Source: Campylobacterales bacterium (GTDB lineage Bacteria; Campylobacterota; Campylobacteria; Campylobacterales; Sulfurovaceae). Taken from it: a stretch of DNA of 64,000 nucleotides. Below are positions 33,720 to 40,891 of the stretch, in pieces. The stretch's first letter is position 1; every line of letters begins with the position of its first letter. The notes beneath the pieces were generated by a model, which worked only from the letters and a program-made list of their open reading frames with translations, was not told where the DNA came from and searched no databases. Where the stretch lies: assembly GCA_016937775.1 (NCBI GenBank), contig JAFGVX010000050.1, positions 898 through 64,897 of the forward strand, given 5' to 3'. The position numbers were made by a program, and so were the translations under genes.

Positions 33720-34019
33720 GTGATGAGTCAAGAAAATGAACCTCGAATGAAAAAGGTTGTTGATGCCGCGGATGGTTTGAGCCTTGGTATCTCCATCGTT
33801 GTAGCAGTTTTGCTTGGATTTGCAATCGGCTATGGTCTTAAAAAACTCACAGGTATCTCGTGGTTTCTTTGGGTGGGTCTCTTTTGGGGAGTTGCGGGTG
33901 CAGTGCTTAATGTCTATAGAGCTTACAGAAAACAAAAAGATATGTATGATGAACTAGCAAAAGATCCACGATATAGCTATAAGAAGCAGCAAGGTTATGA
34001 CGATGATGACGATGATTGA
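33720..34019 (+). CDS. AtpZ/AtpI-like small membrane protein with poly-Asp tail
   Basis: 99 aa. Two TM helices matching the ATPase_gene1-type pattern (LGISIVVAVLLGFAIGYGLKKLTG..W). Ends in DDDDDD. Confidence 0.5.
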   Translation: MMSQENEPRMKKVVDAADGLSLGISIVVAVLLGFAIGYGLKKLTGISWFLWVGLFWGVAGAVLNVYRAYRKQKDMYDELAKDPRYSYKKQQGYDDDDDD

Positions 34020-34509
34020 TAAGCGTATCATTAATGCACTCTTGATAGTTGATATCGGTGTTGTGGTTTTTTGCTATCTTTTTGGCACGCGCACATGGCT
34101 TATAAATTCTCAGATAGGTTTTGTGAGTTCCCTCTTGGTTGTTTTGGCTTCCATGCATAGCTATAGCAAGATGGTACAGAGGCAAGTTGAAAATGCAAAA
34201 CCACTTGACAATGAAGATGATGTGCTAGAGAAAATTGAAGATCCACATGAGGTTTTCAGAGAAGATGCAGAGTCTCAAGAAGAGGATTCAAGGAAGGAGC
34301 CAAAAATCAGTGTGTTAGAATCATTGAAAAACTCAAGAGCTTCGATATCCTTTTATAGGATAGGTGCATATGGAGTATTTGCACTTGGTTTCTTGTATCT
34401 CTCAAGTAATAAAATTTTTCATATTTCAAGTTATTTTGTCGGTATATCTTTACCTATAGCTGTTATTGTTACTTTACTATTTTTGAAAGCAAAAAAAGGA
34501 GATGTATGA
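33997..34509 (+). CDS. Hypothetical membrane protein
   Basis: 170 aa. 2+2 TM helices with an acidic central loop. The start is ambiguous (MTMMTM) and overlaps the upstream poly-Asp codons. Confidence 0.45.
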   Translation: MTMMTMIDKRIINALLIVDIGVVVFCYLFGTRTWLINSQIGFVSSLLVVLASMHSYSKMVQRQVENAKPLDNEDDVLEKIEDPHEVFREDAESQEEDSRKEPKISVLESLKNSRASISFYRIGAYGVFALGFLYLSSNKIFHISSYFVGISLPIAVIVTLLFLKAKKGDV

Positions 34510-34529
34510 TATTGAGACAAATGCATTTT

Positions 34530-34599
34530 GGATTGCCACGACTTTTTCAAAGTCTCGCAATGACAGTCATTGGGATGGGCAAAGCGAAGAAGCAATCCA
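34530..34599. repeat. Family-B palindromic composite element (about 70 nt)
   Basis: ggattgccacgactttttcaaagtctcgcaatgac a gtcattgggatgggcaaagcgaagaagcaatcca. Ends ggattgc/gcaatcc are perfect inverted repeats. Confidence 0.8.
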
Positions 34600-35267
34600 T
34601 TTACCTTAAAAGTATATTTTTATTTTTTGCAATTTTTAGTTTTGGATATGCAAAAGATTTTGTAATCATCGATAAACCTATAGATTTTAGTCCAAATAGA
34701 ATATCTATGACAAAAGATTATATCAAGGTTCATTATGGTTTGGATGTTAAAGATATAACTATAAATCCAAAGATTATAGTGCTTCATTGGACGGCAGTTC
34801 CGACACTTGAGGGTTCATTTGATAGGTTGAGACCGGAACTTTTGCTTACCGATCGCAAAGATATAGCAGCTGCGGGGGCTGTGAATGTTTCATCTCATTT
34901 TTTAGTTGATAGAGACGGGACTATATATAGATTGATGCCCGAGAATTATATGGCAAGGCACACTATAGGGCTTAATTATTATGCGATAGGCATAGAAAAT
35001 GTCGGAGGCAAGGGTGATAAGAGTGAAGATTTGACCCAAGCTCAAGTAAAAGCAAATGCTTATTTAGTGAGATATCTGAAGACAAAGTATCCTGACATTG
35101 AGCTTTTGATGGGACATCATGAATATGCTAAAATGAAGAAAACAAAGTATTGGCTAGAGAAGGATGATAATTATTTTACGCAAAAAAATGATCCGGGCGA
35201 TATCTTTATGAATGCTGTTAGAAGCAAAGTTGTTGACATTGGGCTCAAAAATCCAAGCGAGTTTTAA
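34575..35267 (+). CDS. Secreted N-acetylmuramoyl-L-alanine amidase (Amidase_2/PGRP fold)
   Basis: IVLHWTAVPT...SSHFLVDRDGTIY...IGIENVG. I place the start at MGKAKK (34575), upstream of the signal peptide. The 23 codons from 34506 are encoded by the repeat element. Confidence 0.7.
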   Translation: MGKAKKQSIYLKSIFLFFAIFSFGYAKDFVIIDKPIDFSPNRISMTKDYIKVHYGLDVKDITINPKIIVLHWTAVPTLEGSFDRLRPELLLTDRKDIAAAGAVNVSSHFLVDRDGTIYRLMPENYMARHTIGLNYYAIGIENVGGKGDKSEDLTQAQVKANAYLVRYLKTKYPDIELLMGHHEYAKMKKTKYWLEKDDNYFTQKNDPGDIFMNAVRSKVVDIGLKNPSEF

Positions 35268-36763
35268 TGCAAAGCGGATTTGGTATAGTTGATTGGGGTG
35301 TTTTGATAGCCTATTTTTTGATTATTGCACTTAGTTCCTTCGTTTTTAGCCGTATCAAGATCGCAACTTCTAGAGACTATTTTGTCGCTTCTAATAGCGT
35401 GCCGATGTTTGCTGCAGCCATCTCTATACTTGCCACAACTCAATCGGCTGCCACATTTTTAGGTGGCCCTGAATACTCCTATCTTCATGATCTTACCTTT
35501 GTTGGCTTTTATGTTTCGGCATTTCTAGCTGTTATTTTTGTTGCTTGGGTGCTTATTCCAAGATTCTATGCACTCAAAGCAGTTACTGTTTATGAGCTTT
35601 TGGAAAATCGATATGGCGCGAGTGCTAAAAGAGCAGCAGGTGTGATGTTTTTGGTAGGTCGTCTCTTTGCTAGCGGTGCTAGACTCTACATCGGCGCACT
35701 TGCGATATCGATGATACTTTTTTTGGATATCGAGGCTTTCCATGTTGCTATATCGGTAGTAGTTTTGATGTTTGGTGCGCTTTTATATGTTTATTTCGGC
35801 GGTGTCAAATCGGTCATCTTCTCTGATATCATCCAAGCATTTACCTATATCGGGGCTGCGATTGCCGTGATATGGTATCTCTATATTTCGCTCGATAGTG
35901 ATATGTCAACGATAATAAACACTCTTTATACATCCGGTAAGTTGAAGCTCATAAGCTTTGAGGGTGATTTTAGTATTTGGGCGTTGCTGAGCGGATGGTT
36001 TTTGCTCAATGTTGCAGCGTATGGGCTTGATCAAGATATGACACAAAGAGCACTCTCGTGTAAAGATACAAAAAGTGCACAAAATTCGCTTCTCTTCTCC
36101 GTTTTGCTCACACTTCCTGTTGCATTTCTTTTTTTGATCATCGGACTGCTTTTATACCTCTTTTATGCAAAAGTAGGCATTGCTTCAAAAGAGTTTGACG
36201 GAGAGAGTGTGACGATATTTATGTACTATATCCTCCATGAGATGCCTGAAGGTTTGCGAGGGCTTGTGACTGTGGGCGCCATAGCCGCAGCACTCTCATC
36301 TTCTAACTCTGTGTTGGGTGCCATGGCTTCTGTGGCGATAGAAGACATCTATAAGCCTTGGAAGTTGGCACGAGGCAGTATCGGCGAAGCACACTTTGTA
36401 AGAGCAGGGAGGATGAGTGTTGTGGTATTTTCTATTTTGCTCTCACTTATGGCGATGCTGAGTTATTATTGGCAGCACCATAGTGGCACATCTCTGCTTA
36501 GTTTTGCTCTTGGCGTGATGGCATTTGCTTATGCGGGGCTCCTAGGAGTCTATGGTGCAGCGATCTTTACAACTAGAGGGAGTGCGAAAAGTGTATTATT
36601 TGCTCTTGGCATGGGGTTTTTGACAGTACTTCTTTTGCAGCCTTATATCTTTGGTGCTAATATAGGGTTTTCTTGGCAGATAGTTTTAGGAACCGCTGCT
36701 TCATTTGGAGTGATGATGCTGAGTAAAAATCGCAGAGACATACAAAAGGACATCTATGAGTGA
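35267..36763 (+). CDS. Sodium:solute symporter (SSS) family transporter
   Basis: 498 aa, about 13 TM helices, SSS-type N-terminal region. TAATG overlap with the amidase gene. Confidence 0.75.
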   Translation: MQSGFGIVDWGVLIAYFLIIALSSFVFSRIKIATSRDYFVASNSVPMFAAAISILATTQSAATFLGGPEYSYLHDLTFVGFYVSAFLAVIFVAWVLIPRFYALKAVTVYELLENRYGASAKRAAGVMFLVGRLFASGARLYIGALAISMILFLDIEAFHVAISVVVLMFGALLYVYFGGVKSVIFSDIIQAFTYIGAAIAVIWYLYISLDSDMSTIINTLYTSGKLKLISFEGDFSIWALLSGWFLLNVAAYGLDQDMTQRALSCKDTKSAQNSLLFSVLLTLPVAFLFLIIGLLLYLFYAKVGIASKEFDGESVTIFMYYILHEMPEGLRGLVTVGAIAAALSSSNSVLGAMASVAIEDIYKPWKLARGSIGEAHFVRAGRMSVVVFSILLSLMAMLSYYWQHHSGTSLLSFALGVMAFAYAGLLGVYGAAIFTTRGSAKSVLFALGMGFLTVLLLQPYIFGANIGFSWQIVLGTAASFGVMMLSKNRRDIQKDIYE

Positions 36764-37940
36764 ACTTTATATCGGTGTGATGAGCGGAACCTCTCTTGAT
36801 GGCATCGATGTTGCCCTTTGTGAGATAGACGCCCATAGCTGTAAACTTGTAGCATCACAGAGCTCTCCACTCCCACCCAAGCTTAAAGCCATGATACTCC
36901 ACGCTATAAACTCCAAGATAACCCTAGAGGAGTTCACAAAGCTTGATCATCTTTTGGGTCTTGCGTTTGCTAAGAGTATTGATGCTCTCCTAAAGAGCAC
37001 AAGTTATGAAAAAGGTGATATCAAAGCCATAGGTTTACACGGACAGACTCTTTGGCATACTCCAAAAAGTGCCACTCCAAGTTCGCTGCAACTAGGAGAT
37101 GCCAATGTGGTTGCTGTGCAGAGCAAGATAGATGTCGTGAGTGATTTTAGGCGTAAAGATGTAGCACTTGGAGGTGAGGGCGCCCCCCTTGCTCCTGCGT
37201 TTCATGCGTTTTTATTTCAAGACATCATCGATGAGACTGCTGTAGTCAATATCGGCGGTATGTCTAATATCACTGTCAAGGATAACAGTAAACTCATAGG
37301 TTATGATGTAGGGTGTGGCAATGTACTTCTTGATATGTGGATAGGTATACAGCAAGATAAAAGCTATGATGAGAGCGGAGCGTGGGCAAAGAGCGGCAAG
37401 ATGATTCAATCTCTTTTGGATACCATGCTTAGCGATGTCTATTTTGCAAAAAGCTATCCAAAGAGTACGGGCAGGGAGTATTTCAATCAAGAGTGGCTTG
37501 AAGATAAATTATTCTGTCATTCTGAACTCGTTTTGGAATCAAAAAATAGGGAGATCCTGAAACGAGTTCAGGATGACAACAGAGAATCAAAAAAAGAGGA
37601 GATCCTGAAGCGAGTTCAGGATGACAAGCGGTTGCAAGCAGATATCCAAAGAACACTGTTAGAGCTCACAGCATTAAGCATTGCCAAAGAGGTCAAGAGG
37701 TTTGATAAAAAGAGAGTTATGCTTTGTGGGGGTGGGGCTAAAAATAGCTTTTTAGTAGAACGCCTAAGAGTAAACCTCCCTCAAGTAAAAGTGGAAATTG
37801 CCCAAAATAGTGATATATTAGAAGCGATGGCATTTGCTTGGTTAGCTTCTATGCGTGTGTATGGTAAAAGTGTAGAGTTAAGCAGTGTAACAGGCGCAAA
37901 AAAAGATGCCATACTTGGAGCGATTTATGCAGGAGATTAA
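36756..37940 (+). CDS. anmK: Anhydro-N-acetylmuramic acid kinase, carrying an in-frame repeat insertion
   Basis: 394 aa. GVMSGTSLDGIDV, DFRRKDVALGGEGAPL, KSTGREYFN and SVTGA motifs. 8-nt overlap with the transporter gene. Confidence 0.85.
   Translation: MSELYIGVMSGTSLDGIDVALCEIDAHSCKLVASQSSPLPPKLKAMILHAINSKITLEEFTKLDHLLGLAFAKSIDALLKSTSYEKGDIKAIGLHGQTLWHTPKSATPSSLQLGDANVVAVQSKIDVVSDFRRKDVALGGEGAPLAPAFHAFLFQDIIDETAVVNIGGMSNITVKDNSKLIGYDVGCGNVLLDMWIGIQQDKSYDESGAWAKSGKMIQSLLDTMLSDVYFAKSYPKSTGREYFNQEWLEDKLFCHSELVLESKNREILKRVQDDNRESKKEEILKRVQDDKRLQADIQRTLLELTALSIAKEVKRFDKKRVMLCGGGAKNSFLVERLRVNLPQVKVEIAQNSDILEAMAFAWLASMRVYGKSVELSSVTGAKKDAILGAIYAGD
37516..37627. repeat. Three family-A hairpin modules (one forward, two reverse) inside the anmK reading frame
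   Basis: gtcattctgaactcgttttggaatc (37516-37540), gatcctgaaacgagttcaggatgac (37553-37577), gatcctgaagcgagttcaggatgac (37601-37625). Confidence 0.85.
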
Positions 37941-38865
37941 AAGTTGGCTAGAACATATCGAGTTCAATTATGATACTATTCAAGAGGCATCAAGCGATGC
38001 AAGTTTTCGAAGATATTATAGGCTTATTTTTGGTGAGCAAAGTTTTATACTTATGGATGCTTCAAAACAAAAAGCGGCACTTAAACCACATATAGATATC
38101 TCTATGAGACTTGAAAAAGTCGGGGTAAATGTACCGAGGATTTTAAAACAAGATATTGCCAAAGGTTACCTTATCATCGAGGATTTTGGGGAGCATCATC
38201 TTTTTGATATTTTAAAATATCAAGATAGAGAAATGCAACTTCTTATCTATAAAAAGGCGATTGATGTTATAGTAAGAATGCAACGAGCCGATACCTTTGG
38301 ACTGCCTTTGTATGATAAAGATTTTCTGCTTTTCGAGATGGACTTGATGCAGGAGTGGTACCTAGAAAAGCATCTCAAAAAAGAGCTTAATAATGCACAA
38401 AAAGAACAATTCAAAGATGCGTTGTTGTGGATAGCAGATGAGATTCTTTCACAACCTCAAGATACTTTTGTGCATAGAGACTTTCACTCACGAAACATTA
38501 TGGTGCAACAAAACGGTAGACTTGGTGTTATTGATTTTCAAGATGCCAGGTGTGGAGCGATCACCTATGATCTTGTTTCGTTACTTAAAGATTGCTATGT
38601 GGAACTTGAAGAGGATGTACAAAAAGAGCTTGCACTCTATTTTAGAGATCAAAAAGGCTTAAGCACGGATGATGAGCGTTTTCTTTATTGGTTCGATATG
38701 ATGGGCTTACAAAGACATATCAAGATACTCGGCATTTTTGCAAGACTTGCTCTACGCGATGGCAAGGATGGATATCTTCAAGAGATTCCTTTGACGCTCA
38801 GATATGTTCAGCAGACTGCCAAAAAGTACCCACAGGCACAAGGATTATTAGATATTTTGGCATAA
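37927..38865 (+). CDS. amgK: N-acetylmuramate/N-acetylglucosamine kinase AmgK (aminoglycoside-phosphotransferase fold)
   Basis: SDASFRRYYRL, ILMDA and HRDFHSRNIM motifs. ATG at 37927 has GGAG upstream. An alternative ATG lies at 37906. Confidence 0.75.
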   Translation: MQEIKSWLEHIEFNYDTIQEASSDASFRRYYRLIFGEQSFILMDASKQKAALKPHIDISMRLEKVGVNVPRILKQDIAKGYLIIEDFGEHHLFDILKYQDREMQLLIYKKAIDVIVRMQRADTFGLPLYDKDFLLFEMDLMQEWYLEKHLKKELNNAQKEQFKDALLWIADEILSQPQDTFVHRDFHSRNIMVQQNGRLGVIDFQDARCGAITYDLVSLLKDCYVELEEDVQKELALYFRDQKGLSTDDERFLYWFDMMGLQRHIKILGIFARLALRDGKDGYLQEIPLTLRYVQQTAKKYPQAQGLLDILA

Positions 38866-38866
38866 T

Positions 38867-38928
38867 GTCATTATGAGGTTTTGTTGGAATCTAAAAATGA
38901 AGAGATCCTGAAACGAGTTCAGGATGAC
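38867..38928. repeat. Family-A inverted doublet (REPIN-like), 62 nt
   Basis: gtcattatgaggttttgttggaatc + 12 nt + gatcctgaaacgagttcaggatgac. About 85 percent identical to 37516-37577. Confidence 0.8.
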
Positions 38929-38953
38929 GATAAATTTTAAAATGGAAAAAAAT

Positions 38954-39008
38954 GTCATTCTGAATTTATTTGTCCTCAGGCTTCGCCCTGCGAGATTTCA
39001 TCAGAATC
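38954..39008. repeat. Family-A module interrupted by a 30-nt GC-rich insert
   Basis: gtcattctgaatttattt[gtcctcaggcttcgccctgcgagatttcat]cagaatc. Confidence 0.65.
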
Positions 39009-39029
39009 TAAAACGATAGAGGGAAAAAT

Positions 39030-39680
39030 ATGAAAGCGATGATATTAGCAGCAGGTAGGGGCGAGCGGATGATGTCACTAACAAAAGATTGCCCAAAACC
39101 GCTTCTTATGCTTCAAGGTAAGCCATTAATCGTTTGGCAGATAGAAAGACTTGCGAATGCCGGTTTTAAAGAGATTGTTATCAATATAGCCTATCTCGGC
39201 AGTATGATTGAAGAAACTTTGGGCGATGGCTCAAAATGGGGCGTGAAGATATCCTACTCGAATGAGCAAGAGAATGCGCTCGAGAGTGCAGGAGGTATCA
39301 TAAAAGCACTTGATCTGCTTGGGAAAAAATTTCTAGTTGTAAATAGTGATTTATGGTGTGATTATATTCCTCAAAATAGTTATGATCTTGGGAAAAAAGT
39401 AGCACATCTTATCATGGTGCCAAACCCTGAGCATAATAAGCAAGGAGACTTTGGGCTTATGGGTCATGATATCACGCTTTCAAGCGGTGAGCGATATACA
39501 TTTTCAGGTATCGGCTATTACTCTAAAGAACTTTTTGAAGGCTTAGAGCAGGGCAGAAGAAAACTAGGTAATGTATTAAGAGAAGCCATCAAAGATGGTT
39601 TGGTAAGTGGTGAATTATATAAAGGAATATGGCGTGATGTCGGAACACCCGAGAGGCTCAAAGAGATTGAATCTATTTGA
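39030..39680 (+). CDS. murU: N-acetylmuramate alpha-1-phosphate uridylyltransferase MurU
   Basis: 216 aa. MKAMILAAGRGERM nucleotidyltransferase N-terminus. Lies just after amgK, a pairing I recall as typical. Confidence 0.75.
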   Translation: MKAMILAAGRGERMMSLTKDCPKPLLMLQGKPLIVWQIERLANAGFKEIVINIAYLGSMIEETLGDGSKWGVKISYSNEQENALESAGGIIKALDLLGKKFLVVNSDLWCDYIPQNSYDLGKKVAHLIMVPNPEHNKQGDFGLMGHDITLSSGERYTFSGIGYYSKELFEGLEQGRRKLGNVLREAIKDGLVSGELYKGIWRDVGTPERLKEIESI

Positions 39681-40026
39681 TTGGTGTGATCGTATATTTT
39701 GTGCCTTTTTCTTCGCCACCTTCTAGCACGACATAATAGCCGAACTCTTTTTCACATCCAAAAGCCGTCCATCTTTCTTTTATTTTGTAATGACTAGGTT
39801 TTGATGAGTAGACTTTTATTACTTCAGTAAACGTATTTTTAACTACTAAACACTCTCTTGTTTTAAGGTTATCGGAGATTGATTCTAAAATATCAAGCTG
39901 TAATACTCTATCGGCTTTTGTTTCTCCGTGAATAGTGATGTTTTCATATGCAATTTTTGGTCCAAACAACGAAGTGCAGCTACTAAAAAAGAGTGGAAAG
40001 GTTATAAATATTATAATTTTTTTCAT
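39673..40026 (-). CDS. Hypothetical lipoprotein
   Basis: 117 aa. Lipobox FFSSC. Its stop overlaps the murU stop by 8 nt (convergent). Confidence 0.5.
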   Translation of the reverse strand: MKKIIIFITFPLFFSSCTSLFGPKIAYENITIHGETKADRVLQLDILESISDNLKTRECLVVKNTFTEVIKVYSSKPSHYKIKERWTAFGCEKEFGYYVVLEGGEEKGTKYTITPIK

Positions 40027-40060
40027 GAAATTTAACTTTTTTTATTTAGTATAGCAGATA

Positions 40061-40891
40061 TTAGCTTATCGTTTTTTTTGAGAGATATTTTGCCACACCG
40101 TCTTCGTCATTTGTGTGTGGTAGGATGATGTTTGCTTTTGATTTGACGATATCAAGTGCATTGGCGACTGCTACTGATGTGCCTGCAAGTTCAAACATAG
40201 CTATATCATTGATGCTATCACCAAAAACAGTCAAATCTTTGAAGTCTATATCATGGTATTCACAGACTTTTTTAAGTGCATGGGCTTTATCGCCTTGCGT
40301 GTGTAAAATGGTCAAGAAGTAACCGCCGAAATATTTCTCTGGGGAGAGTTTAAATTCTAGAGTATCTCCAAAAATACCCTGTAGGTGCGCATCAAGGAGT
40401 TCAAGCTCCTCTTGTGTACCGAAATAGACAAGTTTGATGTTTATATCGCGCGCTCGTATATCATCTTCGTAGAGTACCCGAGGATCATTTTTGTAGTTTA
40501 TAAGTACTTTTTTTTGATTTGCATTGAGTTGAGTGGGAATAATAAAAGACTCATCCATGCTTTTTTCATCATTAAGTGCGATGATAAAAGGATAGATGCC
40601 AAGTCTTGCACCCTCATTAATAATCATATCGGCAGTTGCTTTATCGATAGTGCAAATATCAATTATTTTTTTATCTTTCGTGGCAACAAGTGCGCCATCA
40701 AGCAATATCATAGGTGTATTAATGTCAATCTGTTTCGCAATATCACTGCTACTGTAAAAACTGCGTGCTGTGGCTATAGAGAAGTAAGATGTTGCAACAA
40801 GCTCATTGAGTATATCAATCGTAAAACGACTTATACTTCTATCATTTCTAAGGAGAGTATGGTCAAGGTCAGTTATAAAAAGCTTTTTCAT
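40061..40891 (-). CDS. Cof-type HAD-IIB family phosphatase
   Basis: 276 aa. DLDHTLL motif I, GDSINDIAMF motif IV. Confidence 0.75.
   Translation of the reverse strand: MKKLFITDLDHTLLRNDRSISRFTIDILNELVATSYFSIATARSFYSSSDIAKQIDINTPMILLDGALVATKDKKIIDICTIDKATADMIINEGARLGIYPFIIALNDEKSMDESFIIPTQLNANQKKVLINYKNDPRVLYEDDIRARDINIKLVYFGTQEELELLDAHLQGIFGDTLEFKLSPEKYFGGYFLTILHTQGDKAHALKKVCEYHDIDFKDLTVFGDSINDIAMFELAGTSVAVANALDIVKSKANIILPHTNDEDGVAKYLSKKTIS

Follow-up and report, generated by a model that had tools for sequence, protein, structure and literature searches.

Peptidoglycan recycling in Gram-negative bacteria is commonly taught as AmpG-dependent import followed by disassembly in the cytoplasm. 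The locus considered here raises the question of how wall sugars could be recovered in a cell for which no AmpG was found, and whether a sodium symporter might stand in its place. It lies in a 64,000-nucleotide stretch of DNA (the window) on one contig (C85; JAFGVX010000050.1, positions 898 to 64,897) of a sulfur-oxidizing Sulfurovaceae bacterium, represented by a metagenome-assembled genome (MAG; G000, GCA_016937775.1) of 1.49 Mb in 108 contigs that is 89% complete. Five genes on the same strand encode a predicted exported amidase, a permease of the sodium:solute symporter (SSS) family, the anhydro-N-acetylmuramic acid (anhMurNAc) kinase AnmK, an AmgK-like kinase, and the uridylyltransferase MurU, an assignment already made in the first-pass annotation of the window and on which the open reading frame (ORF) map and the profile searches agree. 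That annotation had also proposed that stem peptides are removed in the periplasm and that free MurNAc or anhMurNAc enters through the permease, and this idea gains support from synteny, from co-occurrence, from the predicted export of the trimming enzymes, and from the failure to find AmpG. On this wholly comparative basis, we consider it likely that the genes specify a periplasm-first, SSS-dependent variant of the anabolic route for recycling N-acetylmuramic acid (MurNAc). The features are as follows.

34506-35267, plus strand: predicted exported N-acetylmuramoyl-L-alanine amidase (Amidase_2), 253 aa; PF01510, 76 bits
35267-36763, plus strand: SSS-family Na+ symporter, candidate (anhydro-)MurNAc importer, 498 aa; PF00474, 85.3 bits
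36756-37940, plus strand: anhydro-MurNAc kinase AnmK, 394 aa; NF007139, 424 bits against a cut-off of 367
37906-38865, plus strand: AmgK-like anomeric kinase for MurNAc or N-acetylglucosamine (GlcNAc), 319 aa; PF01636 (APH fold), 109 bits
38866-39029, no strand: amgK-murU spacer, 165 bp, with one repetitive extragenic palindrome (REP)-like palindrome at 38905-38925
39030-39680, plus strand: MurNAc-alpha-1-phosphate uridylyltransferase MurU, 216 aa; NF045761, 286 bits against a cut-off of 250
40061-40891, minus strand: Cof-type haloacid dehalogenase (HAD)-IIB phosphatase, a positional candidate only; TIGR00099, 143 bits

This arrangement is conserved in Campylobacterota. Among 80 species-representative Sulfurovaceae and Sulfurimonadaceae loci scanned with the window proteins, the 39 with at least 7 kb of sequence 3' of the permease gene carry anmK downstream in 36 cases, amgK in 35, and murU in 35, with all three in the same order in 34, and the amidase gene lies directly 5' of the permease gene in 50 of 67 loci. 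Some relatives hold inserts between the cluster genes (aminotransferase, VanY, zinc peptidase, glutaminase, MBOAT, and others), and no link in the Campylobacterota clade is better conserved than the adjacency of permease and anmK. Because the order is kept in dozens of species genomes, the arrangement is not a matter of chance. The nearest homologs of the permease are found in Sulfurovaceae MAGs (92% identity) and in Sulfurovum and Sulfurimonas (64-72%). In an even draw of 100 Sulfurovaceae genomes from 11 genera, the permease and AnmK are restricted to the same five genera and occur in none of the other six; the permease is present in 12 of 12 genomes of genus g1, 11 of 12 of g36, 9 of 12 of g37, 2 of 2 of g39, and 11 of 11 of g41, and the AnmK counts per genus are the same or one genome off. 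This shared genus-level distribution implies that the module is gained and lost as a unit, and in a sample drawn from the whole phylum, made up mostly of other families, it is rare (3 of 120 genomes). The permease subfamily is therefore both syntenic and co-occurring with anmK, amgK, and murU in other Campylobacterota, and its orthologs were not, as a rule, linked to unrelated genes, which would have spoken against the idea; in other phyla, the partners are AnmK, MurQ, MurK-type kinases, and NamZ.

These partners in other phyla accompany relatives of the permease down to an identity of 40%. A relative at 49% (Rheinheimera) is neighbored by NamZ and peptidoglycan peptidases, one at 47% by a divergent AnmK and MurQ, one at 44% stands in a GntR-AnmK-MurQ-SSS array, and one at 40% belongs to an overlapping SSS-AnmK-MurQ chain. 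Relatives at 38, 36, and 33% have no cell wall neighbors, which puts the limit of the functional clade at roughly 38% identity. Eighty more permease loci from a metagenome scan were grouped by identity to the window permease, with downstream genes counted in loci that have at least 3 kb of flank.

Group A, at least 57% identity: anmK downstream in 19 of 26 loci, amgK in 18 of 26, murU in 17 of 26
Group B, 43-52% identity: murQ, namZ, or anmK downstream in 13 of 14 loci
Group C, below 43% identity: any of these genes downstream in 3 of 13 loci

A glycoside hydrolase family 3 (GH3) or amidase gene is found upstream in 18 of 25 group A loci with at least 2 kb of flank. The gene between permease and murQ in group B encodes, according to Pfam, a BadF/BcrAD-type kinase, the family of MurK, which gives the order SSS-MurK-MurQ-NamZ, and one metagenome locus unites RpiR/MurR, SSS, MurK, AnmK, and MurQ. 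In a FastTree phylogeny rooted on SSS proteins of the NanM-fused sialic acid type, the peptidoglycan-linked permeases all fall within one clade (support 1.0) apart from those sialic acid types, with the anabolic clade from Campylobacterota nested next to the AnmK-MurQ and MurK-MurQ-NamZ types. As a separate observation, a marine SSS-MurK-MurQ-NamZ locus (L116:6044-7902) has enolase-superfamily (MR_MLE) and YkuD-domain genes just upstream, a gene set that suggests a fuller muropeptide catabolic operon.

The permease matches PF00474 over residues 38-418 (cut-off 22.8 bits), and its PDB matches are solved SSS/SLC5 structures only, the best being SiaT (5NV9, E 1e-34), while NCBIfam returned generic SSS matches, all under cut-off. 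SiaT is the Na+/sialic acid symporter of Proteus mirabilis, in which the N-acetylneuraminic acid ligands Q82 and R135 are both essential (PMC5931594). When the SiaT ligands described there were mapped through the 5NV9 alignment and then through an alignment of 18 subfamily members, the Na2 site of SiaT (A56, A339, S342, and S343) corresponded to A56, A341, S344, and S345 of the permease, with A56 invariant among the 18 representatives. Conservation extends to the sugar-carboxylate residues S60 and T63 of transmembrane helix (TM) 1 along with T58, to F78 in the N-acetyl pocket, to most of the Na3 site (D187 and S348), and to the inner-gate residues S53, D257, and R261. The glycerol-tail ligand Q82 is replaced by F81, and TM3, the helix that bears R135 in SiaT, holds an invariant arginine pair (R132 and R139). 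No nan genes lie near the permease in the window. The pattern would fit a different N-acetylated sugar acid, for example MurNAc or anhMurNAc.

The strongest argument that the cargo would be a free monosaccharide comes from a predicted exported bifunctional NagZ-amidase beside the permease. In 12 Sulfurimonas-type loci, a signal-bearing ortholog of the GH3 protein of the source genome (46-51% identity) is encoded directly 5' of the amidase or the permease, and in 7 of these 12, GH3 and Amidase_2 are united in one ORF of 558-599 aa that has just one signal peptide, at the N-terminus, and runs up to the start codon of the permease. These GH3-Amidase_2 fusion ORFs are located at the following positions.

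L037:2092-3810
L088:1945-3621
L097:8325-10001
L083:1445-3157
L053:4772-6475
L096:5131-6837
L072:7382-9181

The amidase of the window has a hydrophobic, signal-like N-terminus (..KSIFLFFAIFSFGYA/KD) with no lipobox Cys, and its orthologs mostly carry lipoprotein signals (for example, ..LTAC/GKEE), clear in most Sulfurovum. Across 57 orthologs of the amidase, conservation is 95% or more at H94, H204, E164, and the K227 and D229 of a K-x-D-P-G motif; H94, H204, and D229 form the Zn triad. The AmpD model gives 37 bits against a cut-off of 143, and a protein that combines the Amidase_2 fold with a signal sequence does not qualify as AmpD. The single GH3 protein of the source genome, encoded on contig C38, begins with MRLKTLFLSFIIFSSAGFSQ and has a signal peptide; its GH3 domain scores 211 bits and the NagZ model NF003740 gives 175 bits, under the cut-off of 207, so that with its signal peptide it does not qualify as a cytoplasmic NagZ. 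From these signal peptides, we infer that both enzymes are exported.

The canonical front end was sought elsewhere in the genome. AmpG (TIGR00901) has no match in the source genome and none over cut-off in the 100 Sulfurovaceae genomes; the source genome has no second, AmpD-type Amidase_2 protein, the cluster amidase being the sole one, and MurQ, NamZ, and Mpl were not found in it either. The possibility raised in the first-pass annotation that an ampG/ampD set or murQ lies elsewhere was thus not borne out, and the sole GH3 protein is a predicted exported one. The genome does encode MurA and an SLT lytic transglycosylase, so the cell has a de novo route and can be expected to produce anhydro fragments. 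Two weak AmpG-like matches in the closest relatives were set aside, as they score slightly better for RhtX/FptX and sit within a TonB-receptor/ABC siderophore cluster. An island of this kind (L101:98-9063; G171:C1, from a close relative), which encodes a pair of TonB-dependent receptors, a pair of ABC exporter fusions, and one major facilitator superfamily (MFS) protein of the RhtX/FptX-like type, occurs in the closest relatives; the source MAG either lacks it or left it unassembled.

The proposed mechanism would run as follows. Lytic transglycosylases, of which an SLT-family gene is present, would release GlcNAc-anhMurNAc-peptides into the periplasm, and outside the cytoplasm the exported Amidase_2 enzyme would remove the peptide and the exported NagZ-like GH3 hexosaminidase the GlcNAc. 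The permease, judging by its gene context and binding-site conservation, would then import free anhMurNAc, and probably MurNAc too, in the place of AmpG. AnmK, whose family membership is established, would produce MurNAc-6-phosphate, a phosphatase (the gap in the pathway) would convert this to MurNAc, and the AmgK-like kinase and MurU would form MurNAc-alpha-1-phosphate and uridine diphosphate (UDP)-MurNAc, bypassing MurA and MurB, which are also in the genome. Of the last two enzymes, MurU has P. putida MurU as its best PDB match (4Y7T, E 1e-56), and the AmgK-like kinase, with 3CSV as its best PDB match, is encoded by a gene whose position between anmK and murU is conserved in relatives; AnmK and MurU pass their family cut-offs and the AmgK-like kinase does not. 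To our knowledge, no transporter has been characterized for free 1,6-anhMurNAc, and we are less confident of this sugar as the exact transported species than of the mechanism overall. A bolder version seems to us evenly poised between right and wrong: that the Campylobacterota SSS clade is dedicated to the Na+-coupled import of free 1,6-anhMurNAc and, together with the exported and sometimes fused NagZ-amidase, substitutes in full for the AmpG/AmpD/NagZ front end, feeding the AmgK/MurU bypass by way of a new, non-MupP MurNAc-6-phosphate phosphatase.

A phosphatase is required because AnmK yields MurNAc-6-phosphate, AmgK needs MurNAc, and MurQ was not found. None is encoded in the operon, as had been recorded earlier, none occurs among the cluster inserts of any relative examined, and the genome has no MupP equivalog either. 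The Cof-type HAD gene lies near the cluster in many relatives, yet has orthologs in genera without the module (10 of 12 genomes in g35 and 10 of 11 in g2), and because of this distribution, independent of the module, it is still the weak candidate that it was first taken to be. The simplest guess is that a promiscuous housekeeping HAD enzyme serves as the MurNAc-6-phosphate phosphatase.

A number of observations weigh against the proposed route. The best matches to the MupP equivalog model (NF009696) are two HAD-IA proteins at 67-71 bits against a cut-off of 359; both of these and the Cof-type protein occur in genera with and without the module, and none tracks its distribution. The top NCBIfam match of the AmgK-like kinase, NF045759, reaches 241 bits, under a cut-off of 550. 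The carboxylate-binding R135 of SiaT, which is not positionally conserved, is A135 in the permease, and some permease loci, L077 and L124 among them, have long flanks but no other module genes. In the source genome, the GH3 gene stands apart from the module, and GH3 occurs in all Sulfurovaceae genera, module or not; co-occurrence of GH3 with the module within this family was accordingly negative, and the link rests on adjacency and fusion in the Sulfurimonas-type loci. Signal peptides were called by eye, without a predictor. The absences from the source genome are provisional, as the MAG is 89% complete, and the 100 Sulfurovaceae genomes back the absence of AmpG only, with AmpD, MurQ, and Mpl having been sought in the source genome alone.

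Of the alternatives, the one that survives best is that the same machinery serves mainly to scavenge the peptidoglycan debris of neighbors, as a nutrient or a source of MurNAc, and we regard this as a tentative possibility. The sister clades of the permease sit with the NamZ exo-muramidase, MurK, and MurQ, which is the scavenging and catabolic layout of Tannerella (PMC7670621), the amidase orthologs are predicted lipoproteins or secreted proteins, and, judging by the descriptions in the sequence records, the hosts come from dense mats and vent communities. The source genome, however, was found to have neither MurQ nor NamZ, so that UDP-MurNAc would be the only destination of the sugar; the specificity of AnmK is for the 1,6-anhydro form, the product of the cell's own lytic transglycosylases; and the presence of MurA means that there is no auxotrophy. 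Scavenging and recycling of the cell's own wall are not mutually exclusive.

It is doubtful, if somewhat less so than the remaining alternatives, that the permease imports MurNAc and/or GlcNAc and not the anhydro sugar, with AnmK serving fragments that enter otherwise. AmgK reportedly phosphorylates GlcNAc too, and in group B relatives the permease is accompanied by a MurK-type kinase and by NamZ, an enzyme that releases MurNAc. The only characterized members of the family of MurT, the MurNAc importer of Tannerella forsythia, act on MurNAc (MurT) or GlcNAc (NagF; PMC13055268). Nevertheless, the adjacency of permease and anmK, unsurpassed in its conservation in the Campylobacterota clade, recurs in other phyla, and no other candidate importer of anhydro fragments was found. 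Import of the GlcNAc-anhMurNAc disaccharide or of whole anhydromuropeptides, as by AmpG, with cytoplasmic processing, appears improbable: both trimming enzymes bear signals and are fused behind a single one in relatives, no cytoplasmic amidase was found in the source genome, and the solved SSS transporters that the permease matches have small solutes (such as sialic acid, monocarboxylates, iodide, and glucose) as their named substrates. It is scarcely credible that the recycling genes merely happen to adjoin a permease for some unrelated solute (proline, pantothenate, or sialic acid, for example). The NCBIfam matches of the permease are generic and under cut-off and its relatives at or below 38% identity have no cell wall neighbors, yet three or more operon architectures in several phyla show the linkage again, and the presence or absence of the permease matches that of AnmK genus by genus.

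The layout of the cluster bears on how its genes would be expressed. The amidase and permease genes meet at a TAATG read from the sequence at 35265-35269, the permease and anmK genes share 8 nt (ATGAGTGA at 36756-36763), and the overlap of anmK with amgK is 35 nt, reduced to 14 nt should the second ATG serve as the start; the junction strings given in the first-pass annotation recur exactly at their positions. The translational coupling that it had assumed for the whole cluster holds for the first four genes, which are joined by overlaps, and fails for murU, which is set off by the 165-bp spacer and uncoupled from amgK. The gap in the closest relatives is only 3 nt, and the spacer is created by a copy of a dispersed palindrome resembling REP sequences or miniature inverted-repeat transposable elements (MITEs), GAGATCCTGAAACGAGTTCAGGATGAC, which has at least 16 copies in the MAG when up to three mismatches are allowed (among others at C85:49067, C85:50968, and C100:5653). 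Two further tandem copies form a 36-aa in-frame insertion in anmK (about 37512-37619, with ..EILKRVQDD.. twice), which is missing in relative L022 and present in L023. A promoter and terminator scan gave sites no more numerous than in shuffled sequence and was for that reason uninformative. Between hemL and the amidase gene, the interval 33720-34509 encodes two membrane proteins, a small AtpZ-like one (PF09527) and another of 170 aa whose middle segment is acidic, in ORFs that overlap each other and the amidase start, with the amidase ATG overlapping the stop of the upstream ORF (ATGA at 34506-34509). Because the order of hemL, the atpZ-like gene, the membrane protein gene, and the amidase gene is kept across Sulfurovaceae and the amidase start overlaps the upstream stop, the transcription unit may begin further upstream. 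At the other end, the minus strand at 39673-40026 encodes a predicted lipoprotein of 117 aa (MKKIIIFITFPLFFSSC..) that matches no family; its gene is convergent with murU, overlaps the murU stop, and is kept in the three closest relatives only.

The module suggests a widespread alternative to AmpG-first recycling, with disassembly taking place first in the periplasm, followed by import of the monosaccharide by a sodium symporter. If true, this would supply a substrate class for a large unannotated SSS clade spanning several phyla, extend the MurT precedent to anhMurNAc and to the anabolic AmgK/MurU bypass, explain the re-use of wall sugars in Campylobacterota that have no AmpG, and point to a further MurNAc-6-phosphate phosphatase. 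As the route bypasses MurA, it may also have a bearing on intrinsic fosfomycin tolerance.

Each part of the module can be set beside a known system. As with AmiD of Escherichia coli and the NagZ-AmiE-NamZ set of Bacillus subtilis, an Amidase_2 enzyme and, as in the latter, a GH3 enzyme would dismantle the muropeptide outside the cytoplasm before uptake. In B. subtilis, however, uptake is by the MurP phosphotransferase system (PTS) and the fate of the sugar is catabolic, through MurQ, and AmiD is a lipoprotein of the outer membrane; a lipobox Cys is missing from the window amidase but present in its orthologs. With SiaT, the permease shares Na2, most of Na3, the Ser/Thr residues of TM1, and the inner-gate Arg and Asp, and the substrates (in its case a proposed one) would both be N-acetylated sugar acids; it differs in having Phe for Q82, Ala for R135, and Arg at 132 and 139, in its lack of nan genes, and in belonging to a clade that leaves the sialic acid types outside.

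The anabolic recycling route of Pseudomonas was reportedly described in Gisin 2013, where AmgK is also said to phosphorylate GlcNAc. It proceeds through AmpG, NagZ, AmpD, AnmK, MupP, AmgK, and MurU (Borisova 2017, PMC5371407). The likeness lies in the clustering of AnmK, an AmgK-like kinase, and MurU, with UDP-MurNAc as the expected end product; the difference is that AmpG, a cytoplasmic AmpD, and a MupP equivalog were not found here, the NagZ-like enzyme and the amidase are predicted to be exported, and uptake would be by an SSS protein.

For MurT of T. forsythia, Ruscitto 2016 is said to be the founding paper. MurT is a characterized MurNAc importer of the sodium symporter superfamily, neither PTS nor MFS (PMC5790795, PMC7670621), encoded in murT-murK-murQ next to namZ and ampG (PMC5790795, PMC7670621, PMC5388701), and it is a precedent for the SSS substrate assignment, which the first-pass annotation had thought undescribed. 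T. forsythia has no AnmK, and transport of anhMurNAc by MurT has only been speculated on (PMC7670621); NagF of Stenotrophomonas maltophilia, which acts on GlcNAc, is 35% identical to MurT (PMC13055268). The group B clade relatives of the window permease (43-52% identical) hold the position of the transporter in operons of SSS, BadF/MurK kinase, MurQ, and NamZ, which is the MurT layout, and the window permease is therefore most likely a member of the MurT family, a likeness drawn from gene layout and not from the sequence of MurT. Its own partners in the window differ, being AnmK, AmgK, and MurU, which are anabolic and act by way of the anhydro sugar, with neither murK nor murQ in the window. 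Our literature search found no paper linking an SSS permease to anmK/murQ or to amgK/murU, and the union of an SSS permease with AnmK-AmgK-MurU and a predicted exported NagZ and amidase without AmpG, not found described in the literature searched, is what is new here. SSS-type uptake of MurNAc, as by MurT, and the AmgK/MurU bypass are each already known, and it is these two that the present locus appears to combine.

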